DNA from: an uncultured Beijerinckiaceae bacterium | GTDB lineage: Bacteria; Pseudomonadota; Alphaproteobacteria; Rhizobiales; Beijerinckiaceae | Direction of reading: 5' to 3' | Length of the DNA stretch: 64,000 nucleotides | Assembly (NCBI GenBank): GCA_964235705.1 | Contig: CAXSDP010000014.1 | Span: 2,605 to 66,604, forward strand | In this document: in pieces, positions 6,599 through 26,606 of the stretch | How the letters are laid out: each line of letters starts with the position of its first letter | How positions within the stretch are numbered: position 1 is the first letter of the stretch | The notes under the pieces: generated by a model | What the model was told of the DNA's origin: nothing | Database searches by the model: none | The model's input: the letters and a program-made list of their open reading frames with translations, nothing else | Position numbers and translations under genes: made by a program

Positions 6599-6614
6599 TC
6601 GAGGGGTGGCCGAC

Positions 6615-10376: not shown

Positions 10377-10388
10377 GCGGAGGCGACC

Positions 10389-10826
10389 ATGGGTGAAGCG
10401 CGACGTCGGAGCATACCCAGCCTGCAGGGGTGGCTGACGAAGAACATTGCCAGCGACGACGCCACAAGCCGGGACGAGTTCGCCTCCTACATGGACTGGG
10501 TCGCGCGGATGCTCGACCATGCGACGCCGCCGGACAAGCTTCAGGCCATGCACCTGCGCATGATCCAGGCTGCTTCCCTGGCGATCGTCGAAACGAGCAA
10601 TGATGAGGTCAGCCGCGGCTCCGATCCGGCCACGATCATGACCATCATGTGCAAGGCCCTTGGCGCGTCGTTCGGCTACGCGATGATGTCCCTCAAGTGG
10701 GAGGACGGCGCACCGGTCCGACAGCTCGCGAAGCCCCTCGCCTTGGAATTCGAGCGCGGGCTGAAGTATGCGATCGATAGTTGCCTCGAGCAGGACACCA
10801 ACGATGCGGCCAGTCACGATGGGTGA
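10389..10826 (+). CDS. Hypothetical phage protein
   Basis: GGAGG RBS; protein-like composition; overlaps the next gene. Confidence 0.7.
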   Translation: MGEARRRSIPSLQGWLTKNIASDDATSRDEFASYMDWVARMLDHATPPDKLQAMHLRMIQAASLAIVETSNDEVSRGSDPATIMTIMCKALGASFGYAMMSLKWEDGAPVRQLAKPLALEFERGLKYAIDSCLEQDTNDAASHDG

Positions 10827-12660
10827 CGTGGTGCGCACGTTGAGCGCGATCACTCCCCACCCCATCCCCAACGCCGCGCTGGACCAGCCACTCTGCATCG
10901 TCGGCACGGTCGGGTCTGGCAAGACCTACGCGGCCAAGAGCGCGGTGGAGCGCCTGCTCGACGAGGGCCGGCGCGTGATCATCGTCGACCCGACCGGGGT
11001 GTGGCACGGCCTGCGCACCATGGCCGACGGTACGCCGGGCTTCCCCGTCGTGATCTTCGGTGGCGAGCAGGCCGACGTCCCCGTGTCGCCCGACGCCGGC
11101 GCGGTGCTGGGTGAGCTGCTGGCCGGCGACCAGGTCACCCAAGCGATTGTCGACGTGTCCGATATGACAGGGGGCGAGCGCACGCGCTTCCTGACGGCCA
11201 TGCTCGAGCGGCTCTACGTCGGCGCACGGGTACCGCGTCACCTTGTGCTCGACGAGGCCGACGAGATGGCGTCGCAGACCCCCCTGCCCGAGCAGCTCCG
11301 GCTGCTGGGCATCGTCGACAAGATCGTGCGGCGCGGCCGGGTGCGCGGCTTCCGGCCGATGATGATCACCCAGCGCCCGGCGGTGCTGCACAAGAACGTG
11401 CTCAGCCAGATCGCCACGCTCGTCGCGATGCGCCTGACCTCGCCCCAGGACCGCAAGGCGGTGGAGGGCTGGGTGCGCGGCTCGGCCGACCTCGAAGAGG
11501 CGAAGGCGGTGCTGGCCTCGCTGCCGAAGCTCGCGGTCGGCGAGGGCTGGGTCTGGGCTCCGCGCGAGGGCGTGCTCGAGCGCACCCGCTTCCCGGCGAT
11601 CGCGACGCTCGACACGTCCGCGACGCCGGACAACGATGCCGGCCCGAGCCGACCGCGCGCGATGGCACCCGTCGACGTCGCCGCGCTACGCGAGGCGCTC
11701 GCCGTTGTGTCTCCTGAGACGCCGGATCAGCTTACACAAGGCTCTTCGCGTATCATCGGTAAGGCACAAGCCGGTGCAACGACGCCCGATGTTCTCAGCC
11801 GACGCGATCGCCAACAGACCACAGCCGAAGCGGCAACGAAGAGGGAAGAGCTCGAGGCCGCCGAGCGGCGCGGGTACGAGCGCGGGGTGCGCGAGGCGGC
11901 GGAACGGATCAACGGCTTCGAGCTGCTGTTCGAGCCGCCCAGCCGGACCGCCGCCACGATCGAGCAGATGGACCGTCAGCCGATCGGCAACCTGTTCACC
12001 GGCCGGATTCTGGCGCTGCTCGATGAGGCGGAGGTCGAGCGCCGGCCTGACCGGCGGACGGCAGCGGGCGGCATGTCAACCCCCTACGGCCCTGCCCCGA
12101 CGAAACAGCCACAGCGAACCCGTCATGGGCCGGCACAGCGCGAGCATCGCGCCGCCGACGAAGATTTTGGCACCGCGAGAGCCGACCTGACGCCAGCACT
12201 GCAACGCGTCCTCGATGCGCTCGGATGGTGGCGCGCCGCCGGCCACCACGAGGTGCCACGCGCCCGCGCCTGTGTCGTTGCCGGTTACAGTCCAAACGCC
12301 TCCACCTTCGGCGTGTACATCGGCGAGCTCGCCAAGCGCGACCTTGTCGCGACCGGTGCCGGCGTCGTCCAATTGACCGAGGCCGGCCTACAGGTCGCGA
12401 GCGTGCCCGAGATCGCTGGCGTCGAGGATCTCCGCCTCGCCGCCCGCATGCTGCTCAAGCCACAGGAAGCCCGCGTGTTCGACGTCATCTACGACGCGCG
12501 GGGCGCGATTAGACGCGACCAAGTCGCCAAGGCGGTCGGGCTGTCACCGACGGCATCGACGGCCGGCGTCTACATCGGTTCCGTTTCGGCCTTCGGGTTG
12601 ATCGAGCCGGCCGGGCGCGGGGCGGTCCGCGCGGCGCCGTGGCTGTATCTCGCGTCATGA
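10819..12660 (+). CDS. HerA/FtsK-like (DUF87-type) P-loop ATPase with C-terminal winged-helix-like region
   Basis: Walker A GTVGSGKT; VIIVDPTG; Walker B LVLDEADE; ITQRPA. Confidence 0.85.
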   Translation: MGDVVRTLSAITPHPIPNAALDQPLCIVGTVGSGKTYAAKSAVERLLDEGRRVIIVDPTGVWHGLRTMADGTPGFPVVIFGGEQADVPVSPDAGAVLGELLAGDQVTQAIVDVSDMTGGERTRFLTAMLERLYVGARVPRHLVLDEADEMASQTPLPEQLRLLGIVDKIVRRGRVRGFRPMMITQRPAVLHKNVLSQIATLVAMRLTSPQDRKAVEGWVRGSADLEEAKAVLASLPKLAVGEGWVWAPREGVLERTRFPAIATLDTSATPDNDAGPSRPRAMAPVDVAALREALAVVSPETPDQLTQGSSRIIGKAQAGATTPDVLSRRDRQQTTAEAATKREELEAAERRGYERGVREAAERINGFELLFEPPSRTAATIEQMDRQPIGNLFTGRILALLDEAEVERRPDRRTAAGGMSTPYGPAPTKQPQRTRHGPAQREHRAADEDFGTARADLTPALQRVLDALGWWRAAGHHEVPRARACVVAGYSPNASTFGVYIGELAKRDLVATGAGVVQLTEAGLQVASVPEIAGVEDLRLAARMLLKPQEARVFDVIYDARGAIRRDQVAKAVGLSPTASTAGVYIGSVSAFGLIEPAGRGAVRAAPWLYLAS

Positions 12661-12891: not shown

Positions 12892-13008
12892 TTTTTGTGC
12901 GATACGCTTTGTTGTGGACAGCGTGCGAGTCGACTGCCGAATGAGTTTGCGACTCGGGCTTCCAAGCGTGAACCGTCGCCCGGCAGCCTTGGTTGAATGG
13001 ATGTGCAC

Positions 13009-13740
13009 ATGAGTTTTCATGGTCGACCAGCTAGAGGACGCAAATACCTCGCTCCGGCACAGTCAGTGTCGATGAAGCTCGAAGATGCTTTGACTGCGGG
13101 CTCGCGCACTTTCCACGACGCTAAACAGATGGATTTTCTTCGAGCGTCGAAGATCATCCACGTCGCCGGTGATACCTCACTCTTTAAGCTCCCGGCCGTA
13201 TCAATCGTTGGTACGCGAGAGGTTTCCGCCGAGGGCCGCGTCCGGGCCGTTCGACTTGCGCGCGAATTAGTCGAGGCTGGGGTCGTCGTAATGAGCGGCT
13301 TGGCCAAAGGTGTCGACTCCGCAGCTCACCAATCTGCTATTCAGTCCGGGGGCCGGACTGTTGCCGTCATAGGCACGCCGCTTGAGAAGGCTTATCCTAC
13401 CGAAAACGCCTCCCTACAGGAGTGGATTTATAACGAACACCTCCTAGTTAGCCCATTCGAGAAAGGAGAAGCCACCTTCAAGTCCAGCTTCCCGAAGCGG
13501 AACCGCGTGATGGCCGCCCTTTCGGATGCCACGGTGATCGTCGAGGCATCTGATACGTCAGGCACACTTCACCAAGCCGCCGAATGTGGGCGTTTAGGTA
13601 GGTGGCTGTTCATTATGCGATCTGTGGTAGATGATGCGTCCCTGACATGGCCGGCTCGCTTCTTGGACAGTCCCAAGACCAAAGTCTTAAACTCAACCAA
13701 AGATATCACCGATGCAATTGCCGGTACAAAACCATATTGA
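13009..13740 (+). CDS. DprA/Smf (SLOG) domain protein, ShosA-like
   Basis: VSIVGTR; VVMSGLAKGVDSAAH; FPKRNRVMAALSDATVIVEASDTSGT; Rossmann core only; start could be 12997. Confidence 0.9.
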   Translation: MSFHGRPARGRKYLAPAQSVSMKLEDALTAGSRTFHDAKQMDFLRASKIIHVAGDTSLFKLPAVSIVGTREVSAEGRVRAVRLARELVEAGVVVMSGLAKGVDSAAHQSAIQSGGRTVAVIGTPLEKAYPTENASLQEWIYNEHLLVSPFEKGEATFKSSFPKRNRVMAALSDATVIVEASDTSGTLHQAAECGRLGRWLFIMRSVVDDASLTWPARFLDSPKTKVLNSTKDITDAIAGTKPY

Positions 13741-14377
13741 AGTCGATAGCTTTGTCCGCTACAGTACGGACTCAACATTAGTAAAAAACAGCAGTGATTG
13801 GGACGCCCAGAAGGTAAGATACATAATGAAGGGAGAGAGCTTTAACGGCTACATCTCCATGTTATGCAACGGTTCTTGGCAGAAGATCACTGAAAACAAC
13901 GCTCATCTCTGTGAGCAGGAACTGGTGCGGCAATGCGCTTTACGTATCATATCGAGGACGACCGGACTGGCGACAATTGTACCGGTGCCAAATAGCGGCG
14001 CCACGCCGGCAAACCAAGACTTTAAAACATTGAAGCACGTGCGGGAGATCGCAGGTCTAGCCGGAAAAGGCTTCCTAGCCAAACCGCTGCTTCTTTGGTC
14101 AAGTCCGCAGGAGAAGTCGCATACAGGTGGTCGGTCAAGGTTGTACCGAGACCATCTACAGCATTTGATCCTCAATGGCTCTACAGACAGGCCAATCATA
14201 CTTTATGACGACGTTGTAACAAGTGGCTCGCAGCTGATAGCATCAAAACTGAAGCTTGAGGCAGCTGGGCATAAGATTTTGGGCATGGTCGCGGTGATTT
14301 CAGTTCTCGAGAAAGATGGAGCTACGCACAGCGATCTCTTCTCCTGGCGAACAGACACGCGCCAATACCTTGGATGA
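13712..14377 (+). CDS. Phosphoribosyltransferase-like protein, ShosT-like partner of DprA
   Basis: IVPVPNS; PRPP-binding loop IILYDDVVTSGSQL; overlaps dprA; AT-rich (about 42% GC at 13741-13800, hand count). Confidence 0.8.
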   Translation: MQLPVQNHIEVDSFVRYSTDSTLVKNSSDWDAQKVRYIMKGESFNGYISMLCNGSWQKITENNAHLCEQELVRQCALRIISRTTGLATIVPVPNSGATPANQDFKTLKHVREIAGLAGKGFLAKPLLLWSSPQEKSHTGGRSRLYRDHLQHLILNGSTDRPIILYDDVVTSGSQLIASKLKLEAAGHKILGMVAVISVLEKDGATHSDLFSWRTDTRQYLG

Positions 14378-15151: not shown

Positions 15152-15586
15152 GTGCAGGTCATCGGCATTACGCTCGGCACACCCATGCCGATCCCCCTGC
15201 TCTTCCGAGCCGTGCGGGCCGGCTTTCCGAGTCCGGCCGACGATTTCATCGAAGACGAAATCGACCTCCAGCGCCTGCTGATCACCAACCGGCCGGCCAC
15301 CTTCCTCGTCCGTGTCGCTGGCGAGAGCATGGCTGACAAGGGGATCCACGACGGCGACCTTGCTATCGTCGATCGCTCGCTGGTGCCGCAGAACGGGGAC
15401 GTCGTCGTGGTCGACATCGACGGGGAGCGCTCGTTCAAGGTGTGGACCCGCAAGGGCAACAGGGTCGACCTCGCCTTCGCTAACCCGCGCTACCCCGCCT
15501 TCGTGTTCGACGCGGGCGCCCACGTCGAGATCTGGGGCGTCGTCGCCAACAGCATCCGCCAGCTCCGCCGGGCCGCACGGCGGTGA
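15152..15586 (+). CDS. umuD: UmuD-like S24 autopeptidase
   Basis: AGFPSPADDF; RVAGESM (catalytic Ser); FKVW (Lys). Confidence 0.93.
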   Translation: MQVIGITLGTPMPIPLLFRAVRAGFPSPADDFIEDEIDLQRLLITNRPATFLVRVAGESMADKGIHDGDLAIVDRSLVPQNGDVVVVDIDGERSFKVWTRKGNRVDLAFANPRYPAFVFDAGAHVEIWGVVANSIRQLRRAARR

Positions 15587-16884
15587 GCGCGCCGGCGCCC
15601 GCCCGCTCCTTGGCGCTCGTCGACGGCAACGCCTTCTATTGCTCCTGCGAGCGGGTGTTCGACCCCCGGCTTAAGGGCGTGCCGGTCATCGTGCTGAGCA
15701 ATAATGATGGCTGTTCCATAGCCCGCACCGCCGAAGCCAAGGCGCTGGGCATCCGCATGGGCGACCCCTGGTTCAAGATCCGCGACCTCTGCCGGCGCGA
15801 GCGCGTGCGGGTGTTCTCGTCGAACTACGCGCTCTACGGTGACATGTCGCGACGGACCAACTCGATCTACGACCGCTTCAGTCGTCGATCCGAGGTCTAC
15901 TCGATCGACGAGTCCTTCCTCGACCTGTCGGACGTGGCGGCCGGCCAGCGCGTCGAGCTCGGCCGCGATCTGCGCTCCACGGTGCTCGCCTGGACCGGCA
16001 TCCCGACCTGCGTCGGCATCGGCCCGACGAAGACGCTGGCCAAGCTCGCCAACCAGCTCGCGAAGAAGAACCCCGAGCTCGCCGGCGTGTGCGACCTGAC
16101 CGAGCCGGCCGCGCGCGACCGATGGCTGGCGCGCACGTCCCTCGACGAGATCTGGGGCGTCGGGCCGGCCTCGCAGGCCAGGCTGCGGGCGATCGGCTGC
16201 GCCACCGTCGCCGACGTGCGCGACCTCGCCCCGCGTCTGGCGCGCCAGGGCATGACGGTCGTGGGCGAGCGCATCGTGCACGAGCTGCGCGGCACGAGTT
16301 GCCTCGACCTCGAGTTGGTCGCGCCGACCCGCAAGGGCTGCGCGGTGACCCGCATGTTCTCCCGCCGCGTGGAAGACCTGCCGACGCTGGAGCAGGCGGT
16401 CGCCGCACACGCGACACGGCTGGGCGAGAAGCTGCGCCGCCACGTGCTCGGCACCGACCACGTTACGGTGTTCTACCACACCAGCGAGCACGACCAGGGC
16501 AGTCCGCAGAGGTCCGTGTCGACGGTGGTGCGCCTGCCGGAGGCGACGTCGGACAGCCTGGTGCTGGTGAAGGCTGCGACCTTCGGCGCCCGGAGGATGT
16601 GGCGCGACGGCTACCGCTACAGCAAGGCGGGGGTGATCACCGTCGACCTGGTGCGGCTCGCCGCGAGCCAGCGCGCGATGCCCAGCCTCGGTCAGTTCGA
16701 CCGCGAGCGCGGGTCCGCGCTGATGGCGGCGATGGACAGCTGCAACGCCCGGTTCGGGCGCGGTGCAGTGGTGCCGGCCGCCGCCGGCGTGGCGCCGCGC
16801 CGGGGCTGGGCGACGAAGTTCGAGATGCGCTCGCCCCGCTACACGACGCGGTTGGCCGAGCTGCCGATGGTGGGGACGTGCTAA
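15583..16884 (+). CDS. umuC: UmuC-like Y-family DNA polymerase (C-terminal DUF4113-like tail)
   Basis: ALVDGNAFYCSCE; VLSNNDGC; SSNYALYGDMS; YSIDESFL; SPRYTTRLAELP. Confidence 0.95.
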   Translation: MSAPAPARSLALVDGNAFYCSCERVFDPRLKGVPVIVLSNNDGCSIARTAEAKALGIRMGDPWFKIRDLCRRERVRVFSSNYALYGDMSRRTNSIYDRFSRRSEVYSIDESFLDLSDVAAGQRVELGRDLRSTVLAWTGIPTCVGIGPTKTLAKLANQLAKKNPELAGVCDLTEPAARDRWLARTSLDEIWGVGPASQARLRAIGCATVADVRDLAPRLARQGMTVVGERIVHELRGTSCLDLELVAPTRKGCAVTRMFSRRVEDLPTLEQAVAAHATRLGEKLRRHVLGTDHVTVFYHTSEHDQGSPQRSVSTVVRLPEATSDSLVLVKAATFGARRMWRDGYRYSKAGVITVDLVRLAASQRAMPSLGQFDRERGSALMAAMDSCNARFGRGAVVPAAAGVAPRRGWATKFEMRSPRYTTRLAELPMVGTC

Positions 16885-16913
16885 CCACGTCGCCGCTGGA
16901 TGAGCGCGACGTG

Positions 16914-17273
16914 TCAGCGGACGAGCAGGCCGGGCACAAGCTCTCCGGGCCTGCCATAGAGACGAAAGACCGTGTCGCACCAGGTCCGCAGGCTGGGCGC
17001 TTTCTCGATTGCCTTCTTGAACGTGACGACGTTTGCCTGCACGGCGCTCGTCAGCGCAGGCTTGTCCTCGTCGACGATGTGGGCCGAGTCCTTCAGGGCC
17101 GCATAAAGGTTCTTATCGACGAGGATGTCATCACATTTGGCCGAAGCGGTCAGTACGACCGCCACCGTCGACGCGTAAGCCGCGATCTCGATGTCATGAG
17201 CCGTGAGAGTGATCGACGGTGATGTGTCGAGCGATGCGGTCACGAGGATAAGAATGAGGGCACTAGAGGACAT
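16914..17273 (-). CDS. Small, probably secreted hypothetical protein (two Cys)
   Basis: Hydrophobic N-terminus (MSSSALILILVTA); start uncertain. Confidence 0.5.
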   Translation of the reverse strand: MSSSALILILVTASLDTSPSITLTAHDIEIAAYASTVAVVLTASAKCDDILVDKNLYAALKDSAHIVDEDKPALTSAVQANVVTFKKAIEKAPSLRTWCDTVFRLYGRPGELVPGLLVR

Positions 17274-17481
17274 CACGTTCACGATGCTCCCACGTAGCCC
17301 GCAGGCTCGAGTCCACGGGCGAAGGTGCGACACGCCTTGCAGCGGCATCGTATCCGCTTCCCCGTCGTTGTTTCTACCGCGGTGATGACTGCAAAGGCGT
17401 GCATGGAGGCACGCTCCCGATCGCGGAAACAACCTGAGCGCGATTTCGGTGGACGCTTCACCCGTTATCGATTGAGATGAG

Positions 17482-18270
17482 GTGCTTCACCGCCATAAGC
17501 CCATGACGCGAGCCACGCCTCCTTACAAAACTTTCGCCGAACGTCGTCGCGAATCGGAATGCTACGCGAGCGCCCTCTCGACGATCGACCGCCTGACCGA
17601 CATCACCGAACTCGACGGATTGGCGGACATGCTGAGTTCCGCCTTCTCCACCTATGGCGTGGACCACTTCATCGTCGCTGGCCTGCCGAACCCGACCGAG
17701 CGCTTCGAGAAGATGGTCATGCTCAAGCATTGGTCGGCGGAGTGGTTCGATGTCTACATGAAGGAGGATTACGTGATCGACGATCCCGTCGTCCGCCTAT
17801 GCCGTTCATCGGTGACGCCTTTCGAATGGACCGAGGCGCCCTTCGATGCCGAGCGCGAGCCGCGCGCCCTGGAGCTGATGAACAGGGCGCGCGACTTCGG
17901 CCTTCGACGTGGTTTCAGCATCCCCGTTCACAGCATGAACGGCCTCGACGCTTGTTTCTCCGTCAGCGGGGCCAAACCCGAGTTCGACAGCGGCGCAAGG
18001 GCGGCGCTGCACCTCGTCGCGGTATATGCCTTCGAGAAGGTTCGCCGGCTGTCGCTTCCCAAGCCACGGCCGAGTCCCCTGACCGCGAGGGAGACGGAGG
18101 TGCTGACCTGGATCGCCTCCGGCAAGAGCCACGGGGACATCGCGGAGATCCTGGGCATCACGGAGCGGACCGTGACGGCGCACGCGGTCAGGGCCACCGA
18201 CAAGCTTGGGGCCTCGAACCGAACCCATGCCTGCGTACGCGCCATGCTCGCGAACTATATCTCCGTCTGA
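17482..18270 (+). CDS. luxR: LuxR-family AHL receptor (autoinducer-binding domain + HTH)
   Basis: W..W...Y......DDPV, PFEW and RGFSIP ligand-pocket residues; LTARETEVLTWIASGKS...ERTV HTH; start 17482 or 17503. Confidence 0.95.
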   Translation: MLHRHKPMTRATPPYKTFAERRRESECYASALSTIDRLTDITELDGLADMLSSAFSTYGVDHFIVAGLPNPTERFEKMVMLKHWSAEWFDVYMKEDYVIDDPVVRLCRSSVTPFEWTEAPFDAEREPRALELMNRARDFGLRRGFSIPVHSMNGLDACFSVSGAKPEFDSGARAALHLVAVYAFEKVRRLSLPKPRPSPLTARETEVLTWIASGKSHGDIAEILGITERTVTAHAVRATDKLGASNRTHACVRAMLANYISV

Positions 18271-18340
18271 CCTTCAGGTTTCTACAATACCGGCCTAGGA
18301 CGTTTCTCCGCATGCTGTTGCTTCCGTGGGGGAAGCAGCC

Positions 18341-18979
18341 ATGTCAGAGATCCACGTCGTCACCCAGGCGAACCGGACGGACTACGATCAAATTTTGGTG
18401 GACTACCACCGTAAACGGCATGACATCTTCGTTGGCGAGCGGAGGTGGATGTCCCTTTTCAGCCCTGATGGCCTGGAAGTCGACGAGTATGACGATGAGC
18501 ACAGTATCTACTTGCTCGCGCTTGAGGGTGATACTGTCGTCGGGGGGCAACGACTCTATCCCACCCTGCGACCGCACATGATCAGCCAGACGTTCGCCCA
18601 CCTCGTCGAGGATCGCGTGCCGGTCAGCTCCCGCATCCTGGAATGGACGCGCTACTTCATCATCAAGGAGCGACGGCGGACGCAGACGGATGGGCGTTTG
18701 ATGGCATCCGTCCAGCAATACTGCCTCGAGGAAGGGATCACCGACCTCACCGCGGTAGGCGAGATGTGGTGGCTGCCGCGTTGGCAGCAGTATGGCTTCG
18801 ACGTGCGACCGCTCGGCCTGCCGCAGATGGTCGATGGCCAGCCTGCGCTCGCCGTCCGCATCGAGATCTCGGAGGAGAGCTACGAAAGCGTGCTGAGCGT
18901 CGCCGGGTTGAAGCACCAGGATCTCACTCGGTGCCGTTCGGGCGCGAGCAATGGCGGGCGTCTGGCCAATGCCGCATGA
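18341..18979 (+). CDS. luxI: Acyl-homoserine lactone synthase, BjaI/RpaI-like
   Basis: RHDIFVGERRW, DGLEVDEYDD, GGQRLYPT, LEWTRYF, EMWWLPR, PLGLP. Confidence 0.95.
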   Translation: MSEIHVVTQANRTDYDQILVDYHRKRHDIFVGERRWMSLFSPDGLEVDEYDDEHSIYLLALEGDTVVGGQRLYPTLRPHMISQTFAHLVEDRVPVSSRILEWTRYFIIKERRRTQTDGRLMASVQQYCLEEGITDLTAVGEMWWLPRWQQYGFDVRPLGLPQMVDGQPALAVRIEISEESYESVLSVAGLKHQDLTRCRSGASNGGRLANAA

Positions 18980-19184
18980 GTTACCACGATCGCGGATCGT
19001 GGAAAGTTTGGCGGCGTCCGTCGCCTCGTTCGCCGAGTGCCAATCCGCCGAAGGCTTGGCCAGCCTGATCGGCTTCTTCCACCTGGCCGTTCCTCACCGA
19101 GAGGCCAGGATCGAACTCATTGTCAGTCCTTCGGGGCGCCTGGAGCTCAGCATCGACCTTCATCCGGTGGAAGAGGGCGGTTAG
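18969..19184 (+). CDS. Small (71 aa) hypothetical protein overlapping the luxI stop
   Basis: 11-nt overlap with luxI; protein-like; an alternative 30-aa ORF starts at 18976. Confidence 0.55.
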   Translation: MPHELPRSRIVESLAASVASFAECQSAEGLASLIGFFHLAVPHREARIELIVSPSGRLELSIDLHPVEEGG

Positions 19185-19255
19185 GAGTCGCACGCTGGCG
19201 GTTTGGTCGCGGGACGCATACTGTTGCTGAAGCGAGGCTTCAGTGGGCAAGTGCA

Positions 19256-19663
19256 TTGGATTCTTTCGACGAGCTTGTTGGCACCAAGATCCGTTTCAGA
19301 CGCAACGAGTTGGGGCAGTCTCAAGAACAGCTCGCGAAAGCAAGCGGCGTCACGTTCCAGCAGGTGCAGAAGTACGAGAAAGGCAAAAATCGCGTCGCAG
19401 CCAGCCGCTTGGTGCGTATCGCCGAAGCGCTTCAGGTCCAACCGACCTACTTCTTCCCTCTGGATCCCAAGTTCGGTGCGGCGCCCTGTGGCGAACTTGA
19501 ACTTATGCGAGAAAGCTTCGGAAGCGAGGACAGACGGAAGCTTAACCGCGCCTTTGGCCAGATCGAAGCTCCCGCGTTAAGGAAGGCGATCGTCCGCTTG
19601 GTGGAAGCGCTCGCCGAGGGAAGGACAGGTTACGCCGTGGAGGAAGAAGGCGAGGGCGGCTGA
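19256..19663 (+). CDS. XRE/Cro-CI family HTH regulator
   Basis: VGTKIRFRRNELGQSQEQLAKASGVTFQQVQKYEKGKNRVAASRL; TTG start uncertain. Confidence 0.9.
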   Translation: MDSFDELVGTKIRFRRNELGQSQEQLAKASGVTFQQVQKYEKGKNRVAASRLVRIAEALQVQPTYFFPLDPKFGAAPCGELELMRESFGSEDRRKLNRAFGQIEAPALRKAIVRLVEALAEGRTGYAVEEEGEGG

Positions 19664-19981
19664 CGCGCCATCGACGGCAAACGCGCAGTCCGGCCCTCGC
19701 CGGGACATCGCGGCGCTCGGCAGCGAGGGCGACGCGGGCTGGCGATGAAGGACGCCGGCTGCGATCGCCAGCCCGAACGGTTCGGAGCAGGCCACAACGT
19801 TGGCACGATGACCGTCGTGATCGGGCCGGATCAGCCAGAGCCGATTGCGGAGCGTAATCCGCACGCCAGAAATACGCCAGAAGCGGTAGGGTTTCGGCGT
19901 TTTCGCGGCGGGACAGGAATTCTTACGTGCGGATTACAAGTCCGCGTACATTGAAAACTGCTCAGACTAGAGGCGGCAGGT

Positions 19982-20809
19982 TCAGGAGCCCGTACCTTGA
20001 ATGACACCCCCTCCATACTTGTTTACAACAAGAAAAAGGCTATTATAGAGCCGCGGCGGAAGATCGGACATCAGATTAATTTTAAAGTCACCTTTTTTAT
20101 TGCGCTCAGTAATGACAGCGATCTTTAGGTCATTGATCTCGTCAATTAAATTCTCCTCTGCCTTTTCGCTATGAGGTACAAAGAACGATACATAGTTCGC
20201 AAATCTTTCGACATCTAAGCGGTCTCTACGTATCGGAGCTGCGAGAGATTGCATGATATTTTTCATTTCCTTCAGCTCGGAAAGCACAAAGTCTTGACTT
20301 GAAACTTCTTGCTCATCGAGCTTGGCAATTTTGAATGTTCCAAACTGTTTGAGAAAGGGCGAGTAATCCGCCTCTTTTGCCGCCTTCATAGTGGCAAGTA
20401 TCTTGGAGCGGAGCGTTTCTTTAAACTTGATAATATCCGCAAAACGCAGATCTTTGGGATAGGCAATGTGTTCTACTAATCCTGTATCAAAGCTATATGG
20501 CGTCACTTCATCCTTGATTATAACTACAGGCTTGTCGAATGCCATTCTCATTCCCAACTCGAACATGACATTGGGATTACGCGAGCTGACGTCGCATACA
20601 ATCATTGGGCAATTACTTATATTCTGCACGATCGTTTTGTGAATAGTCTTAATTTCATCAGCTATGCTAACGACTGTAGCATCCATATTTGCCATCTTGA
20701 TGGCATCCTGTACTATCTCCCTCACGTCAAGCCAATGAGAAGCAGAGTATCCTTCAACAGGACTGATTGGCATTATTATACCGCAGATCTGATTGTCTCT
20801 TTCGGTCAA
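19982..20809 (-). CDS. AT-rich protein with NDT/TIR-like N-terminal domain
   Basis: CGIIMPIS...VCDVSSRNPNVMFELGMRMAFDKPVVIIKD; about 37% GC at 20041-20100 (hand count); TTG start after GGGGG. Confidence 0.75.
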   Translation of the reverse strand: MTERDNQICGIIMPISPVEGYSASHWLDVREIVQDAIKMANMDATVVSIADEIKTIHKTIVQNISNCPMIVCDVSSRNPNVMFELGMRMAFDKPVVIIKDEVTPYSFDTGLVEHIAYPKDLRFADIIKFKETLRSKILATMKAAKEADYSPFLKQFGTFKIAKLDEQEVSSQDFVLSELKEMKNIMQSLAAPIRRDRLDVERFANYVSFFVPHSEKAEENLIDEINDLKIAVITERNKKGDFKINLMSDLPPRLYNSLFLVVNKYGGGVIQGTGS

Positions 20810-20849
20810 GGTGTGACCCCCCGTTTGGTGACCATAAATCTTTGTACTT

Positions 20850-21284
20850 CTATGCTGCTTCAACACCGATGATTAATCGCCTACCGAGAGCGGCCAGCAC
20901 GGCCATCAGCGTCGACATCTTGGTCGGATGATCGGGATCGAGGATGCGCCGCACCTCGCGCCCGTCCTTGCCGAGCCGCTCGCCGAGTTCGGCCTGGGTG
21001 ATGCCGGACTCGCGGAACGCCTCCAGCACCGCCAGCTTCGCCGCGACGTCGGCGTCGACGGAAACCATGACCTGCCCCGCCTTGGCCTTCGACGCTTTCG
21101 GCAGCGGCCGCTTCATCTCGAAGAGGGTGAGCAGCGCCACACCGAGCGCGTCGCTGCCCATCGCCCGCGCGTCAGCCTCGCCGTTGCCCTCGGTGATCGC
21201 CTCCGGCACGTCGGGGAAGGTGACCACGAGGACGCCGGGGTTTTCGCCCGGCTCGAAGATCGCTGGGTACGTGAACATGCGCAT
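20850..21284 (-). CDS. hicB: HicB antitoxin
   Basis: YPAIFEP...VVTFPDVPEAITEG...A; C-terminal HTH (SGITQAELGERLG...RRILDP). Confidence 0.93.
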   Translation of the reverse strand: MRMFTYPAIFEPGENPGVLVVTFPDVPEAITEGNGEADARAMGSDALGVALLTLFEMKRPLPKASKAKAGQVMVSVDADVAAKLAVLEAFRESGITQAELGERLGKDGREVRRILDPDHPTKMSTLMAVLAALGRRLIIGVEAA

Positions 21285-21319
21285 GGATCCCTCCTTGAAC
21301 GAAATGGACCGGCTCGGCC

Positions 21320-21517
21320 TCAGGTGAGGCCGAACTTCTTCCTGATCTTGCCGGCGGTGACCGGGTCGATCTCCCGGCTCGGTAGGATCGTCACCTTGTC
21401 GCCCACGCGGACGATGCAGTGGCCGCCCTTGCCGCGCCCCTTGTCGACCGAGAAGGAAAGGCCCCGGGCCTTGGCGGCGTCGCGAAGCTCGTTGATGAAG
21501 CGATCCCGCTTGTCCAT
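21320..21517 (-). CDS. hicA: HicA toxin (dsRBD-like RNase)
   Basis: 65 aa, basic, GKGGH motif, directly upstream of hicB. Confidence 0.88.
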   Translation of the reverse strand: MDKRDRFINELRDAAKARGLSFSVDKGRGKGGHCIVRVGDKVTILPSREIDPVTAGKIRKKFGLT

Positions 21518-21547
21518 GGCCTTGGTCTCTCCGTCCGATGAAGAGAT

Positions 21548-21602
21548 AATAGGACATAAATGCCCTCATGGCAAGCACTGATTAGGCGTTTTTTGTCCTA
21601 TT
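21548..21602. promoter_or_regulatory. Inverted repeat AATAGGACA...TGTCCTATT, probable HicB operator
   Basis: Perfect 9-bp arms (21548-21556, 21594-21602) between the divergent hicA and 21669 ORFs. Confidence 0.6.
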
Positions 21603-21668
21603 TTCTCCTTGCGTAAAGCGTCCCGCAGAGCGATGTTGGTCCGACGCAGAGAACGAGGGGCGGCGACG

Positions 21669-21896
21669 ATGAAGCAGGTCAGCAAGACCCATGAGAAGAT
21701 GATGGCGGTGCTCGAGACCATCGCTCGGAAGCACCTCTCCCTGGAGACGTTGGCCACGCGCAACGGCGACGGCCTCGACTTCTCCGACCAGGCGGTTTGG
21801 TCGCTTGAGGCCGCGCTGCGTGCCGCCTACGACGCGGGTATGGCGGCTCGGAGCGGGCGGGCCCAGCAGGTGACGGGCTCGCTGGCGGTGAACTGA
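21669..21896 (+). CDS. DUF6900-like small protein
   Basis: IARKHLSLETLATRNGDGLDFSDQAVWSLEAALRAAYDAG. Confidence 0.75.
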   Translation: MKQVSKTHEKMMAVLETIARKHLSLETLATRNGDGLDFSDQAVWSLEAALRAAYDAGMAARSGRAQQVTGSLAVN

Positions 21897-21923
21897 CGAG
21901 GGCGCCCACGGGCCTCAGACGCG

Positions 21924-21957
21924 AAAAAAGCCCCGCCTCGCCGGAGCGAGACGGGGC
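21924..21957 (-). terminator. Rho-independent terminator ending the late/lysis operon
   Basis: GCCCCG-CTCGC hairpin with CGGA loop followed by TTTTTT on the minus strand. Confidence 0.8.
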
Positions 21958-22052
21958 GAAGTCATGGGAGGAAACGCCCTACGTGGGCGTGGACTGATGA
22001 TGCAGGATCCGTGCTTGCGCGAACCTGTCTATGTAGCCGCAGCCTGTTGAGG

Positions 22053-22559
22053 CTAGCGCAGCTCCACCATCGGATGCGCTCCAGAGCCGAGGTGGGCGTT
22101 CCAAACCACGAAGGTGACGAAGAAGCCGGCGGCGACGATGAAGCCGGTCGACACCCAGCGCGCGCGGGGCACCCTACCCTCGACGGCGTTCGGCGCCCAA
22201 AGGTGCAGGAGCACGCCGACGAGGCCGATGTACATGATCGCGGTCTCCCAGTCGGAGTTGAAGATGTCCGGCCAGCCGCCGTTTCGCCCGACGAAGGAGA
22301 CGAGGCGCTGCGCCAGCATCGACAGGGCCACCAGGAAGATGCCGGAGCCGAGGTAGTCGCCCTTGGTCGGCACGCGGGCCGACAAGGCCACGACGAGCAC
22401 GGGCGAGTAGGCGACGCACACGCCTGCCGTCGCCGAGGCGACCAAGCCATTCAACATCAGGATGAGGAAGGGCGAGTCGGTCAGGGCCGCGACGAGGAGG
22501 TACCCGACGGCGCACGATGCGAGGAAACGGAGCAACCGGCCGTGTCGAAGGTCAGCCAT
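22053..22559 (-). CDS. Multi-pass membrane protein, last gene of the lysis region
   Basis: About 5 hydrophobic segments; overlaps the upstream ORF. Confidence 0.75.
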   Translation of the reverse strand: MADLRHGRLLRFLASCAVGYLLVAALTDSPFLILMLNGLVASATAGVCVAYSPVLVVALSARVPTKGDYLGSGIFLVALSMLAQRLVSFVGRNGGWPDIFNSDWETAIMYIGLVGVLLHLWAPNAVEGRVPRARWVSTGFIVAAGFFVTFVVWNAHLGSGAHPMVELR

Positions 22560-22776
22560 CCGCGTCATCGTGTTTTCCCATGCGTTTGAAGAGGTCGTTC
22601 ATCGTGTCCCGCAGGGCGCGCTCGTGGGACGCGTTGGCGGCGACCGTCACCCGCTGGTGCTCGGCGACGGCGGCGTCGACGTCGCGGGCGATGAGGTCGA
22701 TGGTCGTGGCGGGTTCGCCCGCCGGCGGGTCCGGCTTGAAGAGCCTGCGAAGGATCGGTCCCAGGAACCGCATCAT
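22552..22776 (-). CDS. Small hypothetical protein
   Basis: MMRFLGPILRRLF...; overlaps genes on both sides. Confidence 0.65.
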   Translation of the reverse strand: MMRFLGPILRRLFKPDPPAGEPATTIDLIARDVDAAVAEHQRVTVAANASHERALRDTMNDLFKRMGKHDDADG

Positions 22777-23135
22777 CGGCTCCTCGTCCGACGCGGGCCG
22801 AACGCCTCCTTCATCCAGTCCTTCACCGCCGCGAGCTCGTCGGCCAAGGCCGCCAGCATCTTCGTCAGGTCCTTGTCGCCCTGCCCGCGCGCGGCGATCG
22901 TCTCCGTCGCGGTCACCGTCACCTTCACCAGCGCGGTGGCGTCCTGGAGCCGCTTCTCCTGCAGGATCGCGATCTCCGCCCGAAGCGCCGCGTTCTCCGC
23001 CTCCTTGCCGGTCAACCGCTTGGCCAGCAGCCAGCAGATCGCACCAAGCAGCATGAGAACGAGCGCATAGGCGCCCCAGCTCTTCAGCGCTTCGCCCCAG
23101 ATCGCGGGGACGAGCGTCGTCGCTGCGCTGTCCAT
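22773..23135 (-). CDS. Single-TM coiled-coil protein (holin-like)
   Basis: WGAYALVLMLLGAICWLL TM segment followed by a heptad region. Confidence 0.7.
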   Translation of the reverse strand: MDSAATTLVPAIWGEALKSWGAYALVLMLLGAICWLLAKRLTGKEAENAALRAEIAILQEKRLQDATALVKVTVTATETIAARGQGDKDLTKMLAALADELAAVKDWMKEAFGPRRTRSR

Positions 23136-23161
23136 CGCTCATCTCCATTCGCCTCGCTGGG

Positions 23162-23473
23162 CTAGTCCCGCGCGCCAGGGGCGCCGTAGTGCTGGACGAC
23201 GTCGGCGTAGAAGGCGGCGTCCGCGCCGAGGCGGGCGTTGGCGTCGAGCCGGCCGGCCTTCTCCCGCGCGGCGTAGGCGCGGGCGTCCTCGCCGGCCTGG
23301 GCGGGCGGTACGACCACCGGTACGCCGAACGACGCCGGCGCCGGCGGCAGCACCGGCCTAGCGGCGAGCACCGGCGGCGCCGAGGCCGCGCAGCCGGCGA
23401 GCGTCGTCGCCAGACAGACGGCAGCCATCAGGATGAGAGGCGCGCGTGGGCTTCGAGGCGAGTTCGGACGCAT
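23162..23473 (-). CDS. Outer-membrane spanin (Rz1-like lipoprotein)
   Basis: Lipobox LAGC, Pro-rich mature part, overlaps the i-spanin 3' end. Confidence 0.75.
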   Translation of the reverse strand: MRPNSPRSPRAPLILMAAVCLATTLAGCAASAPPVLAARPVLPPAPASFGVPVVVPPAQAGEDARAYAAREKAGRLDANARLGADAAFYADVVQHYGAPGARD

Positions 23474-23861
23474 AGGCTTGGACCTGTCGCTGGAGGGTGT
23501 CGGCGGTCGCGGCGGCGGTGCGCTCGCGCTGAGCGGCGGCATCGGCGATGTCGTGTTGCGCCCGGGCCTGCCTGGCATTCTCATCGGCCCACGCCGTCGC
23601 GACGGCGAGATCGGCGCCCAGGCGGTGCGAGCGATCCGAAGCGGCGTCGAGCGCGGCCCGCGCTTCCCAGCCCACCACGACGGCCATCAGGCAGGCCATG
23701 GCGATCCGTCCGCTCGACGAGCGCGCGAGGCCGCGCAGGCGACCGGACACCCCGGGGATGAAGCAGGCGCCCACAAGGAGTATCGGCAGGCCGAGCACGG
23801 CGTGGGCGAGGGCGAAGCGCCCAAGGTCCGCCGCGAGGGCGTCGAGGATCAGGCGGCGCAT
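23358..23861 (-). CDS. Inner-membrane spanin (Rz-like)
   Basis: N-terminal TM segments, Ala-rich coiled coil, C-terminal GCRLSGDDARRL. Confidence 0.75.
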   Translation of the reverse strand: MRRLILDALAADLGRFALAHAVLGLPILLVGACFIPGVSGRLRGLARSSSGRIAMACLMAVVVGWEARAALDAASDRSHRLGADLAVATAWADENARQARAQHDIADAAAQRERTAAATADTLQRQVQAYASELASKPTRASHPDGCRLSGDDARRLRGLGAAGARR

Positions 23862-23970
23862 GGAAGGCTCCGGTGGGAGGATGGGGGACGACGCGCCGAC
23901 CCGTCGCGCGAGCGCGGGGCGTTCAACCCGTCTCGGGCGAGGCCGAGGCCGGCGCGTCGAACTCGGGAAG

Positions 23971-24381
23971 TCAGGCCCCCGGCGCTGGCGTCGGCACCGG
24001 CTCGGGGGTGATCGCGGCGGCGTCGGCGAGGCCCTGGCTGTGGAGGGCGGCGAGGAGCATCGGACCGAGGAAGCCGGCGACGAGGATCACGATGCCGACG
24101 ACGCGGGCCTGCGTGTCGGGGAGGTAGCGGCCCCAATCCGTGCCGGCGATCTGCGCGTAGAGCGGACCCACAATCGGCACGAGGGACGTCGCGAAGGCCA
24201 GGATGACGACCTTGAGACCGTGAAGGCGCAGCATGATGCGCGCGATCAGGCTCGCCTCGGCGGCGCCGATCCGCTCGTAGAGCCCGGCCGTCAGCCGGAA
24301 GCTGTGATGGTTCGGTCGGATCAGCAGGAACCAGACGACGAGCTGGGCGGCGAGCGCCAGCGGAAGGAGCACGAGGAGCAT
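23971..24381 (-). CDS. Holin-like membrane protein
   Basis: Three hydrophobic segments, directly after the endolysin. Confidence 0.6.
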   Translation of the reverse strand: MLLVLLPLALAAQLVVWFLLIRPNHHSFRLTAGLYERIGAAEASLIARIMLRLHGLKVVILAFATSLVPIVGPLYAQIAGTDWGRYLPDTQARVVGIVILVAGFLGPMLLAALHSQGLADAAAITPEPVPTPAPGA

Positions 24382-24391
24382 GGTGGTGGCC

Positions 24392-25276
24392 CTAGTTGGA
24401 GGACGCGATCGCGGCGGTGCCGGATGGGATCGACACGCCGCCGGGCACCCCGCTGATCGCGGCGAAGGCGGCGCCGCGCTTGGCGAAGACGCTCGCGCGC
24501 AGGAGGAGCGCGATGGTGGCGGCGATCGCCGCGATCGCGACGCCGAGCACGAGCCAGCTGAGTGCCGTGTCGGCGGCGAGCGAGGCGGCCAGGATGCCGC
24601 CGCCGGCGAGCGTCACGCCGACCGCCTCGTTCGTGTTGGTGGAAGCCTGGGCGGCGCGTGCCGCCAGGTGGGCGTTAGCGTCGCCGGGATGGATCCCCAC
24701 CTGGTGCGCGTAGGCCTCCGCGAGGCGGGTGTCATACCCCTTGGTCGCCGGTCCGTTGTAGAGGCGGGCGAAGCTCGGCCAGTCCTTCGCGACGAGGGCG
24801 GCGCGCATGTGCGGGCTGGCGACGATGAAGTGCGCCATGGCGGCGAGGTGCTCGTCCTCGCCGCCGGCGACGAAGGCAGTCACCATCGCGGTCGCGCTCG
24901 GATAGCCTGCGGCGGCGTGGTTCTCGCCGAGGATCTGCGGCAGACCCCACGAGGTGGAGCGAAGCGCCGCCTCCTCGTCGATCGCCATGGCGGCGGCGAT
25001 GCGCCCGTAGGAGTCGTGCGGGTACGGCTTGGCGCCCCAGCGCGGGTAGGCGAGGCCGGACGCCACGGCGCGGTCGCGCTTGTCGCCCTGGAGGTTGCGG
25101 TGGAAGATGTGCGGCTCGAACAGCGCCTTGGGACGGTGTTCGTCGTCGAAGCCGGAGCAGGACGCCTCGACCTGGATGTCGGCGAGCAGCGCGTCGACCG
25201 CGCAGCCGATCAGGGCGGCCGCCGCGGCGACCCCGCCGTCCGTGCGCTTGGTCGCGGTGCCGGTGAAGTTCAGCAT
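24392..25276 (-). CDS. Endolysin, N-acetylmuramidase (DUF3380-type) with C-terminal hydrophobic tail
   Basis: QVEAS...LFEPHIF; STSWGLPQILGEN; FARLYNGP...YDTRLAEAY. Confidence 0.9.
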   Translation of the reverse strand: MLNFTGTATKRTDGGVAAAAALIGCAVDALLADIQVEASCSGFDDEHRPKALFEPHIFHRNLQGDKRDRAVASGLAYPRWGAKPYPHDSYGRIAAAMAIDEEAALRSTSWGLPQILGENHAAAGYPSATAMVTAFVAGGEDEHLAAMAHFIVASPHMRAALVAKDWPSFARLYNGPATKGYDTRLAEAYAHQVGIHPGDANAHLAARAAQASTNTNEAVGVTLAGGGILAASLAADTALSWLVLGVAIAAIAATIALLLRASVFAKRGAAFAAISGVPGGVSIPSGTAAIASSN

Positions 25277-25283
25277 GGTGGCC

Positions 25284-25661
25284 TCAGTTCAGGCGGGTGA
25301 AGTTGACGATCGCGGTGCCGGCGCGCTCGAAGCCGAGGACGCGCGCGGCGCCGCGTGAGAGGTCGAGGACGCGGCCGGACCATGCCGCCGGGCCGCGATC
25401 GTTGACGACCACGACCACGGAGCGCCGGCCGAGGCGGACGCGCAGGCGGCAGCCAAGCGGCAGCGAGCGGTGGGCGGCCGACAGTCCCATCGGCCGCCAC
25501 ACCGCGCCGGAGGCCGTGCGGCCGTGCCCCATCTCCGCCCCGTAGAAGCTGGCGCGGCCGCTTTCGGCACGGGCCGGCGCGGCGCTCGCCATGCCGAGGC
25601 ACAGGCCAAGAAAAAGGCCCGCTTGCGCGAGCCTGGGAAGCGTCGTCACGACCGTCGTCAC
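25284..25661 (-). CDS. rlpA: RlpA-like double-psi beta-barrel lytic transglycosylase with signal peptide
   Basis: GRASFYG...TASG; AAHRSLPLG; VVNDRGP; RVLDLSRGAA. Confidence 0.9.
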   Translation of the reverse strand: MTTVVTTLPRLAQAGLFLGLCLGMASAAPARAESGRASFYGAEMGHGRTASGAVWRPMGLSAAHRSLPLGCRLRVRLGRRSVVVVVNDRGPAAWSGRVLDLSRGAARVLGFERAGTAIVNFTRLN

Positions 25662-25663
25662 GA

Positions 25664-25939
25664 TCAGCTCGAAGGGGCCGTCGACGTCGTCGACGTGGAG
25701 GGCGAAGCCGCCGCGGGTGCGGGTGCCAGGGTCAGGGTGACGGCGGCGCCGGTCTTGTAGGCGGCGATCTGATCGGCGGTCGGGTTGGTGATCACCACGG
25801 GGAAGGTCTTGGCCATCTTCACGTTGCCGGGCAGCGTCGTCGACACGTCGACGTGCACCGTCAGGGTCGGCGCCTCGGGGTTGTCGTCGGCGACGGCGTT
25901 CTTGACCGTGTGGGAAAGGGCGACGGGTGCGGCGGACAT
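25664..25939 (-). CDS. Hypothetical phage protein
   Basis: GGAGG RBS; in line with the operon. Confidence 0.65.
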   Translation of the reverse strand: MSAAPVALSHTVKNAVADDNPEAPTLTVHVDVSTTLPGNVKMAKTFPVVITNPTADQIAAYKTGAAVTLTLAPAPAAASPSTSTTSTAPSS

Positions 25940-25967
25940 GGCGGCCTCCAAGCTGATGGGGTTCGGG

Positions 25968-26597: not shown

Positions 26598-26606
26598 GGC
26601 AAGCCC

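Follow-up and report, generated by a model that had tools for sequence, protein, structure and literature searches.

Introduction

The closest described counterparts of the locus analyzed here are in Phage A and Phage B, two prophages of Phaeobacter inhibens T5, both of which encode LuxI and LuxR in a module arranged as hth<>xre-luxR-luxI (Bunsick et al., bioRxiv July 2026; PMC13345283). These modules make their own homoserine lactones (HSLs) and promote lysogeny. Among 93 Roseobacter prophages, 53 carried luxI; the modules act like cassettes that can be exchanged, and the screen found them in the Roseobacter clade only (PMC13345283). Here we report a complete luxR-luxI pair, encoding a predicted acyl-homoserine lactone (AHL) receptor and a predicted HSL synthase, in a four-gene cassette (luxR-luxI-orf71-xre) that lies amid phage-type genes on a 64,000-nucleotide stretch of contig CAXSDP010000014.1 (hereafter, the window). 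A preliminary description of this DNA, made from the sequence alone, had put forward a prophage that both makes and senses an AHL as an undescribed system; in that respect the Phaeobacter and Roseobacter prophages came first.

Other mobile elements are known to take part in this form of signaling. The phage LuxR solos, which occur in Aeromonas phage ARM81ld and its relatives, are receptor-only and listen to the signal of the host (Silpe and Bassler 2019, PMC6456758). Element-borne quorum sensing of transfer is found in the Ti plasmid (TraR/TraI) and in ICEMlSymR7A (TraR/TraI1 with QseM/QseC) (PMC8789080, PMC4755241). In a circuit of Mesorhizobium, the linked third gene encodes a crotonase-family enzyme (PMC10470506).

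The luxR and luxI Genes

The luxR and luxI genes of the window are intact and in tandem, with phage-type genes on either side (Table 1). Genes were taken from a gene call based on GC content at third codon positions (GC3) together with lists of open reading frames (ORFs), the GC content of the window being about 66–72%. Pfam matches, full-length alignments and conserved residues bore out the preliminary description of an intact tandem pair, with the likely starts shifted by 15–21 nt: luxR, in ORF 17482-18270, was called from the ATG at 17503, and luxI lies within ORF 18326-18979, of 217 amino acids (aa).

The luxR product matched Autoind_bind (PF03472, E 1e-32, 113 bits) and GerE (PF00196, E 1.5e-16, 60 bits), and its predicted architecture is that of a LuxR-type AHL receptor, with an N-terminal autoinducer-binding domain and a C-terminal GerE helix-turn-helix (HTH). 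It could be aligned over its full length to CviR, QscR, RhlR, LasR, and TraR. The reference residues of the ligand pocket were W57, Y61, D70, P71, W85, and G113 (TraR numbering), and in the CviR and QscR alignments the motif HWSAEWFDVYMKEDYVIDDPV...PFEW...RGFSIPV has W, Y, DP, W, and G at the corresponding places, the TraR numbering having been mapped by eye.

The luxI ORF matched Autoind_synth (PF00765) with an E of 1.9e-19 and 70.4 bits, against a cut-off of 24, over residues 24-188 of the 217-aa ORF. From its likely start LuxI is 212 aa long, which is in the range of its homologues (211–213 aa). An alignment of LuxI with 15 homologues (16 members) contained 63 invariant residues, including R26, F30, W36, D48, D51, R71, E101, and R104, which we take to have catalytic or S-adenosylmethionine-site roles, and the N-terminal part of LuxI aligned to BjaI without gaps. 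When solved structures in the PDB were ranked, the best relatives were BjaI (5W8A, E 3e-55), RpaI (6WN0, 1e-34), and MesI (6WNS, 2e-31), and lower scores were obtained for TofI (2e-12) and LasI (2e-11). Because the first three score far above the other two, LuxI is predicted, by this similarity ranking only, to group with the acyl-coenzyme A (acyl-CoA)-dependent subgroup (BjaI/RpaI/MesI) and not with the users of acyl-acyl carrier protein (acyl-ACP). Relatives of LuxI were found in Microvirga, Methylobacterium, Lichenihabitans, and Beijerinckiaceae.

A Conserved and Mobile Cassette

Five further copies of the cassette were found (L125, L004, L124, L002, and L003; L numbers are our labels for compared contigs and loci), with LuxI identities of 63–80% and, in every copy, the order luxR-luxI-orf-xre. 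The start of orf71 overlaps the 3' end of luxI by 11 nt, and the same overlap was observed in all six copies, which suggests that the two genes are translationally coupled. Nucleotide homology among the copies is limited to 17536-19608. The GC content of the cassette is 61.6%, in comparison to ~70% in the umuDC and late-gene flanks.

The surroundings of the copies vary. The L003 copy has metabolic genes around it, and L002 is near Fic, ABC-transporter, and flagellin genes. The L004 copy adjoins genes for a 497-aa serine recombinase and ParB/RepB-like proteins, and L124 has beside it genes for a full-length serine integrase (551 aa) and a Dam methylase, together with small phage-like genes and a PLD gene that shows 64% identity to its counterpart in the window. 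In the closest relative, L125 (LuxI 80%), luxR begins 220 bp after a tRNA-Thr(ggt) gene (L125 516-590), which suggests that this copy, too, is at the edge of an integrated element. Because the same gene order and the same luxI/orf overlap recur in unrelated contexts, the cassette is seen to move as a unit, and it is complete, conserved, and horizontally mobile.

Besides luxR and luxI, several parts of the cassette are conserved. The spacer between the two genes is 70 bp in length and holds the element CCTTCAGGTTTCTACAATA, which was kept in four of four aligned copies (window, L002, L003, and L004), L003 and L004 differing at one or two bases, and which is present once within the window. The GFFHLA motif of orf71 was conserved in the same four copies. 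For orf71 there was no Pfam or PHROGs family match, no homologue was returned by a word-indexed protein search, and a single-sequence AlphaFold model (pLDDT 71) gave no significant fold match. The XRE protein is 41–50% identical to XREs encoded in the early regions of prophages (L034, L073, L074, L081, and L237), and in L237 the homologue directly adjoins the HerA gene. It is also related, at 40–46% identity, to the XRE that is encoded divergently from luxR in Microvirga.

A scan of species-representative genomes yielded 36 more distant LuxI loci, at 39–61% identity. More than 20 Microvirga genomes have a syntenic chromosomal xre<>luxR-luxI locus with the same histidine kinase ~3 kb upstream (L087-L116, match at about 8650-10600). 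None of the phage genes of the window was found within 10 kb at any of the 36 loci. On this distribution, it seems that the XRE belongs invariably to this quorum-sensing family as its third component.

Site and Extent of the Insertion

The source of the window is lichen metagenome run X1, and three comparison runs (X2-X4) carry its host flank at about 97–98% identity. In those three runs no depth was observed over 6.6-64 kb apart from scraps of conserved genes. An X2 contig follows the host flank and tRNA-Leu to position 6513 and then continues into GCGTTCGGCTGTAGGTCATCCCGCCTTCTT, and a minor 45-bp unitig in X1 does likewise. Because both diverge at 6513, that position is the empty-site junction and the insertion starts exactly at the 3' end of the tRNA-Leu gene. 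The insertion is strain-specific, being absent from related strains with the same host flank, and the cassette lies 11 kb inside it.

The right end was sought in several ways. The empty-site flank GCGTTCGGCTGTAGGTCATCCCGCCTTCTT was absent from all 66 kb examined; the right end is therefore beyond 66,021 and the insertion is at least 59.5 kb in length. No tRNA-core repeat was found over 6.5-66 kb, either with the 26 nt of the tRNA-Leu 3' end at up to 3 mismatches or by blastn-short of 6400-6620 against the 66 kb, which argues against two elements in tandem at tRNA-Leu. The attR for which the preliminary description had proposed a search was, thus, not recovered by tRNA core or by flank up to 66,021. 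The tRNA-Leu 3' pattern was not found in IMG/VR. Read depth was 17.1 in the host flank, 16.1 in the first unitig of the element (6484-9707), and 10–14 in its other single-copy unitigs; as a test of one versus two elements it was set aside as uninformative, the differences being within noise and GC bias.

One Phage Element or a Composite

Our preferred reading, to which we lean modestly, is that a prophage carries the cassette as cargo: one large phage-type element, at least 59.5 kb long and with the tRNA-Leu(taa) 3' end as its integration site, would hold it in its accessory zone. It is plausible from the arrangement of the genes that the block is a single element. The phage genes named in the preliminary description were all recovered, with early genes (DUF5131 and HerA-like) on the left and those for muramidase, fibre, baseplate, sheath, capsid, portal, TerL, and TerS on the right, although it did not mention the Shosta pair and umuDC between the HerA-like gene and luxR. 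It had placed the pair in an intact-looking prophage: the DNA is indeed strain-specific and of phage type, and that it is a single intact prophage is plausible, the right end lying beyond 66 kb.

Two related loci inform the nature of the left arm. In L235, an element directly after tRNA-Leu(taa) has a junction region homologous to that of the window. It also encodes relatives of DUF5131 (44%), of a small gene product (50%), and of HerA (56%), as well as one of the ORF that precedes luxR. L236 has a cluster of VVA0879-like (65%), DUF5131, a 66-aa gene (57%), PLD (67%), and HerA (75% over the N-terminal half), and this cluster runs into a tyrosine integrase and then into host genes. Given that ending, the DUF5131-HerA cluster is the early operon, of int-proximal type, in a temperate element. 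In the vegetative order of a phage of this kind, the early operon runs toward the end of the late operon, att and accessory genes being placed between the two; the window has this layout, with convergent early and late operons, except that its junction is filled by cargo including luxRI. In lambda-like phages, the b region and att occupy the position where the early and late operons converge. Between the two arms, no integrase, host housekeeping gene or att remnant was found, and the late operon is 3 kb from luxRI. The arms and the cassette are further linked by UmuDC, which is present in TerL relatives (L133 and L134) and in a DUF5131 contig (L034), by the XRE homologues of prophage early regions, and by the L124 copy with its PLD, phage-like, and serine integrase neighbors. 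A single Logan unitig (16798-27572) joins the umuC 3' end, luxRI, lysis genes, and a tail fibre at even depth.

A substantial set of observations weighs against a single element carrying luxRI. A search of 2.9 million IMG/VR contigs for LuxI, by single sequence or by profile, returned no relative, and the sole match in 50,697 phage records had 27% identity. The preliminary description had proposed a search for luxRI in related prophages; in the neighborhoods of TerL, baseplate, and DUF5131 genes, taken as stretches of up to 10 kb on each side, there was none among 29 TerL relatives, 80 baseplate relatives, and 80 DUF5131 loci. Nor was a left-arm early gene found beside right-arm genes in any of the 29 TerL or 80 baseplate relatives, and the backbone shared by the closest relatives is recombinase-TerS-TerL-late genes. 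In one IMG genome, DUF5131-type (L061) and TerL-type (L131) prophages are separate viral contigs. The cassette also occurs in plainly non-phage contexts (L002 and L003), and its family is syntenic in Microvirga chromosomes. The left arm and the NACHT region both resemble defence-island cargo, and the window has no recognized repressor besides xre, no recognized replication gene, and no recognized tyrosine integrase. At 60 kb or more, the element would exceed the 43–45 kb of cultured TerL relatives, and of its two ends only the left was located, the right attachment end being outside the window. Lastly, phage similarity in run X18 appears to end near 21925, at the late-operon terminator, which is a weak indication from noisy, low-identity mapping; the lichen runs X18-X21 at low identity are too noisy for placing a phage boundary.

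Two further results come from the same comparisons. Muramidase and HerA scans of IMG/VR returned no luxRI-bearing relatives. Three DUF5131 loci (L012, L024, and L030) have distant TerL, portal or capsid-type homologues, which are co-directional with DUF5131 and not convergent.

Many of these observations are what would be expected if the block were a composite, which we regard as possible, if rather unlikely. In that case, the arm at 6.5-22 kb with luxRI would be an island of its own at tRNA-Leu, or what remains there of a decayed prophage, and an unrelated myovirus of ~39–45 kb, perhaps by means of its own serine recombinase, would have inserted adjacent to it or into it. This arm would then amount to a defence/accessory island with Shosta, HicAB, PLD/HerA, and UmuDC, to which NACHT would belong further to the right, and luxRI would be neither excised nor packaged with the phage. 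The left arm is indeed rich in low-GC defence and cargo genes, and the NACHT gene beyond the phage has a similar composition and is also strain-specific. In relatives, where the phage backbone runs from recombinase to late genes, there is no left-arm gene within 7 kb upstream of the recombinase, and L235 has, over 15.8 kb downstream of tRNA-Leu, the DUF5131-to-HerA genes without recognizable structural genes. The distinct contigs of DUF5131-type and TerL-type prophages in one genome point the same way. Integration by a serine recombinase leaves no long repeats, so that a missing internal att repeat is compatible with a composite. However, the DNA between the arms contains neither a second integrase nor an att core or a host gene, and the myovirus part by itself would be without a recognizable repressor or replication gene. 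The convergent early/late layout is also the vegetative order of L236-type temperate elements, and homologues of UmuDC and XRE occur in relatives of both arms.

A Proposed Circuit and Its Output

We infer from the gene content how the cassette would be expressed, what signal it would make, and what it would regulate. LuxI would produce a homoserine-lactone signal, probably from acyl-CoA rather than acyl-ACP. LuxR with bound signal would activate luxI-orf71-xre via the conserved element after the luxR stop, giving positive feedback, and XRE and the orf71 product would tune the circuit. Carriers of the element would, thereby, broadcast and sense an element-specific signal. The output may be control of phage lysogeny, as in the Phaeobacter prophages, or control of host genes (lysogenic conversion). 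No second CCTTCAGGTTTCTACAATA copy was seen in the window, nor was a lux-box-like palindrome near the promoters of the phage. An accessory role is favored by the place of the cassette among morons and by the single occurrence of the conserved element within the window.

A switch of the type described by Bunsick et al., in which lysogen-made HSL and LuxR would drive the xre repressor and reinforce lysogeny when lysogens are abundant, seems to us doubtful. Its appeal is that xre, luxR, and luxI of two Phaeobacter prophages act in this manner and that these genes are often present in prophages of Roseobacter (PMC13345283). There is also no cI/Cro-type gene besides xre in the 60 kb examined, and XRE homologues are encoded in the early regions of related prophages. 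The layout of the window speaks against it, in that xre is last and not first in the gene order, the divergent ORF upstream is without an HTH and there is no divergent HTH gene, and the cassette is in a cargo zone, far from the early promoters, where it converges on the late operon. Moreover, the post-luxR element occurs only once in the window, the same cassette is present in non-phage contexts, in Microvirga the XRE constantly accompanies chromosomal luxRI, and the real immunity region may lie outside the window. We consider it more doubtful still that a temperate myovirus of a lichen-associated, Hyphomicrobiales-like bacterium would count lysogens by its own acyl-CoA-type HSL circuit and so set lysis versus lysogeny, with the conserved 71-aa protein as a small effector (anti-repressor or anti-activator), and with phage-made AHL signaling having arisen outside Roseobacter by capture of a mobile cassette of which chromosomes and other integrative elements also make use.

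The pair is most improbably an ordinary host chromosomal quorum-sensing locus that merely happens to be near a prophage: although relatives at 51–61% LuxI identity are syntenic in more than 20 Microvirga genomes and the L003 cassette is among metabolic genes, related strains with the same host flank are without the whole region, the cassette is well inside the insertion, its GC content is unlike that of the host and the flanks, and its closest relatives are in five different contexts.

Other Genes of the Window

The remaining features of the window are listed in Table 1. The bacteriophytochrome among the host genes (1102-3669) combines an HWE histidine kinase with a receiver domain at its C terminus and is ordinary for Alphaproteobacteria. 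The TGYCCCACYTT direct repeats, ~57 nt apart, immediately follow tRNA-Leu(taa), and both were kept in L235 (about 5966-6045), which is from a different organism; these could be integrase arm sites or operators.

Table 1. Features of the window, including those of the region joining the host flank and the insertion.
Feature	Position	Strand	Remarks
Host genes	129-6378		Glycosyltransferase, bacteriophytochrome with HWE kinase, HU, MFS transporter, MarR
tRNA-Leu(taa)	6430-6515	+	ARAGORN; strain-specific insertion begins at its 3' end (left boundary, attL side)
Junction/promoter region	6516-6605	+	Two direct TGTCCCACCTTT repeats, 6530-6541 and 6587-6598
Early operon	6606-12660	+	DUF5131 to HerA-like; Pfam, PHROGs, PADLOC
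DUF5131	6606-7718	+	Early operon
VVA0879-like	7720-8118	+	Early operon; followed by genes without assigned family
PLD/DrmC-like nuclease	9580-10122	+	Early operon
HerA/FtsK-like ATPase	10768-12660	+	Early operon
Shosta anti-phage pair	12997-14377	+	ShosA 12997-13740 (DprA-like, PADLOC E 1e-68), ShosT 13712-14377 (E 1e-9); genes overlap
umuD-umuC	15152-16884	+	Error-prone polymerase pair; Pfam, PHROGs
Divergent ORF upstream of luxR	16914-17348	-	144 aa; homologue L235 14894-15349, 32%, E 3e-9
luxR-luxI-orf71-xre cassette	17503-19663	+	Four conserved genes, one co-directional unit within 2.2 kb
luxR	17503-18270	+	AHL-binding LuxR-type regulator (predicted), 255 aa
Conserved element CCTTCAGGTTTCTACAATA	18271-18289	+	Directly 3' of luxR stop; candidate luxI promoter or LuxR/XRE site
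luxI	18341-18979	+	HSL synthase (predicted), 212 aa; Pfam
orf71	18969-19184	+	Conserved small protein, 71 aa
xre	19256-19663	+	HTH_3 regulator, 135 aa; last cassette gene; Pfam, PHROGs
Cargo, cassette to late operon	19982-21896		Low-GC ORF 19982-20866 (-), hicB 20850-21284 (-), hicA 21320-21517 (-), DUF6900 21669-21896 (+)
Terminator-like hairpin	21930-21957	-	Strong, 12 bp stem and T run; closes late operon
Myovirus late region	22053-56664	-	TerS, TerL, portal, protease-capsid fusion, sheath, tube, tape measure, baseplate, fibres, muramidase/lysis; PHROGs, Pfam
Upstream of TerS	56801-60738	-	DNA methylase, eight small genes without assigned family, short serine recombinase
Serine recombinase	59890-60738	-	282 aa; Resolvase domain and part of Recombinase domain
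NACHT/STAND NTPase, 3' part	61983-64000	-	1181 aa; on to about 65528 contig coordinates (L086 494-4039)

DUF5131 had 223 relatives in IMG/VR. In three DUF5131-type prophages (L006, L017, and L081), the end of the ORF of a large serine recombinase translates like the reverse complement of a tRNA T-arm/acceptor stem (..GFEPPT.. / ..GGIEPPT..), and these elements may abut tRNA genes. At the position equivalent to Shosta, which in the window is low-GC cargo (52.8%), L236 has a small gene and a tyrosine integrase after the HerA gene. Homologues of UmuDC were found in four viral contigs (L034, L068, L133, and L134), and UmuC was 51–67% identical in several viral contigs. Metagenome depth over umuDC was 37–52, as compared to about 13 in its flanks (2–4x), and therefore similar umuDC copies are present elsewhere in the community. 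The divergent ORF upstream of luxR had no HTH and no Pfam or PHROG match, and was not kept beside other copies of the cassette. The GC content of the cargo stretch between the cassette and the late operon is 56%. Its first ORF (294 aa, GC3 0.46) is weakly similar to nucleoside 2-deoxyribosyltransferases (phrog_3634; PADLOC HEC-01A, E 2.5e-4) and may be a defence gene.

The late region consists of uninterrupted ORFs of high GC3 with matches to the expected PHROG families, muramidase included, and its packaging, head, tail, and lysis modules are complete, with undisrupted genes. TerL is of the lambda-gpA type and was 41–44% identical to those of Serratia BZS1, Citrobacter phiNP, and Acetobacter phiAP1, and 60–79% identical to those of 29 IMG/VR contigs. 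Acetobacter phage phiAP1, a cultured relative, has late genes only in common with the window. The tail-fibre genes (26607-31022 and 32335-34758) contain extensive internal direct repeats, with units of 96, 195, 291, and 942 nt, that break short-read unitigs.

The serine recombinase is without a zinc ribbon and a coiled coil. Five relatives (L129, L131, L132, L145, and L153) keep such a recombinase upstream of TerS, at 282–288 aa and 58–66% identity; that it might be a broken large serine integrase was rejected because these relatives have the same length and position. At the right edge of the window, a 646-aa ORF is part of the 1181-aa NACHT/STAND gene, which was read from a Logan unitig (L086). 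This gene, an Avs/NLR-like defence candidate of low GC content, has the same orientation as the phage recombinase and lies upstream of it. At about 65.8-66.0 kb, where the unitig stops, a C-terminal fragment resembling a transposase was recognized by eye; like the NACHT gene, it is absent from related strains.

Comparison with Known Systems

The LuxI of the window is similar to those of chromosomal host circuits, namely BjaI/BjaR1 of Bradyrhizobium, RpaI/RpaR of Rhodopseudomonas, and MesI/R1-I1 of Mesorhizobium, and the order of luxR and then luxI is also the same. It differs from these in being part of an insertion, and the window has the 71-aa protein and XRE in place of the crotonase-family gene of Mesorhizobium. 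The Microvirga locus shares all three of LuxI (51–61% identity), LuxR (44–52%), and XRE (40–46%) with the window, but its xre is divergent and upstream, its synteny is fixed, and it has no phage genes within 10 kb; orf71 was not detected in Microvirga loci by tblastn. We know of no characterized system with the Microvirga xre<>luxR-luxI arrangement.

Similar to the Ti plasmid and ICEMlSymR7A, the window has its own luxI and luxR together with small regulators, among them an XRE-type protein comparable to QseC, with which carrier density could be measured. A type IV secretion system or relaxase domain was not detected in the roughly 50 window proteins scanned, and a weak TrwB/TraG P-loop similarity was seen in the HerA-like ATPase. 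As orf71 had no match in Pfam or PHROGs, its product is not recognizable as DUF2285/QseM or TraM, unlike the situation in the conjugative elements.

Among phages, ARM81ld resembles the window in having a LuxR-type receptor gene beside an XRE-type gene on a temperate phage, with 31% identity between the LuxR proteins, and the difference is that the window has a synthase whereas ARM81ld-type phages do not. We also observed adjacent, same-strand and unannotated frames for LuxR-like (28%) and LuxI-like (27%) proteins at 21876-23171 of MT835580.1, a 55-kb metagenomic "Bacteriophage sp." from human faeces, and this is possibly another complete luxR/luxI pair on a phage.

The Roseobacter modules are the closest comparison. 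Like the cassette of the window, they have complete luxI and luxR genes with an XRE gene, form one co-directional unit, and are exchangeable; they are associated with temperate phages, as the window cassette plausibly would be. Of the Phaeobacter phages, one is likewise a myovirus, and in those phages, as in the window, no canonical cI/Cro was recognized nearby. The order in the window is luxR-luxI-orf71-xre in comparison to hth<>xre-luxR-luxI, and the window has an additional small ORF and is without the counter-oriented HTH gene on a divergent promoter (PLysis) that the Roseobacter modules have. The position also differs, as the window cassette is in a cargo zone by the end of the late operon and the Roseobacter modules are at an immunity-type divergent promoter. 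Moreover, the host is outside Roseobacter, being a lichen-metagenome bacterium that appears Hyphomicrobiales-like from the relatives of LuxI only, and here both phage membership and function are putative.

These differences determine what the locus would mean. If luxRI is only cargo in an adjacent island, it would be an ordinary horizontally acquired quorum-sensing locus. If it is packaged with the phage, this would be the first AHL-making and AHL-sensing phage outside of the Roseobacter clade, with a different gene order, an acyl-CoA-clade synthase whose signal may be unusual, and a further small protein that is conserved. We therefore consider the locus to be a good candidate for phage AHL signaling beyond Roseobacter, in which the host group, the gene order, the acyl-CoA-clade synthase, the small ORF, and the sharing of one cassette across contexts are potentially new. 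That one cassette is found in chromosomes, in elements with serine recombinases, and in a phage-type block offers a direct means of studying how such a circuit is rewired on passing between hosts and mobile elements.

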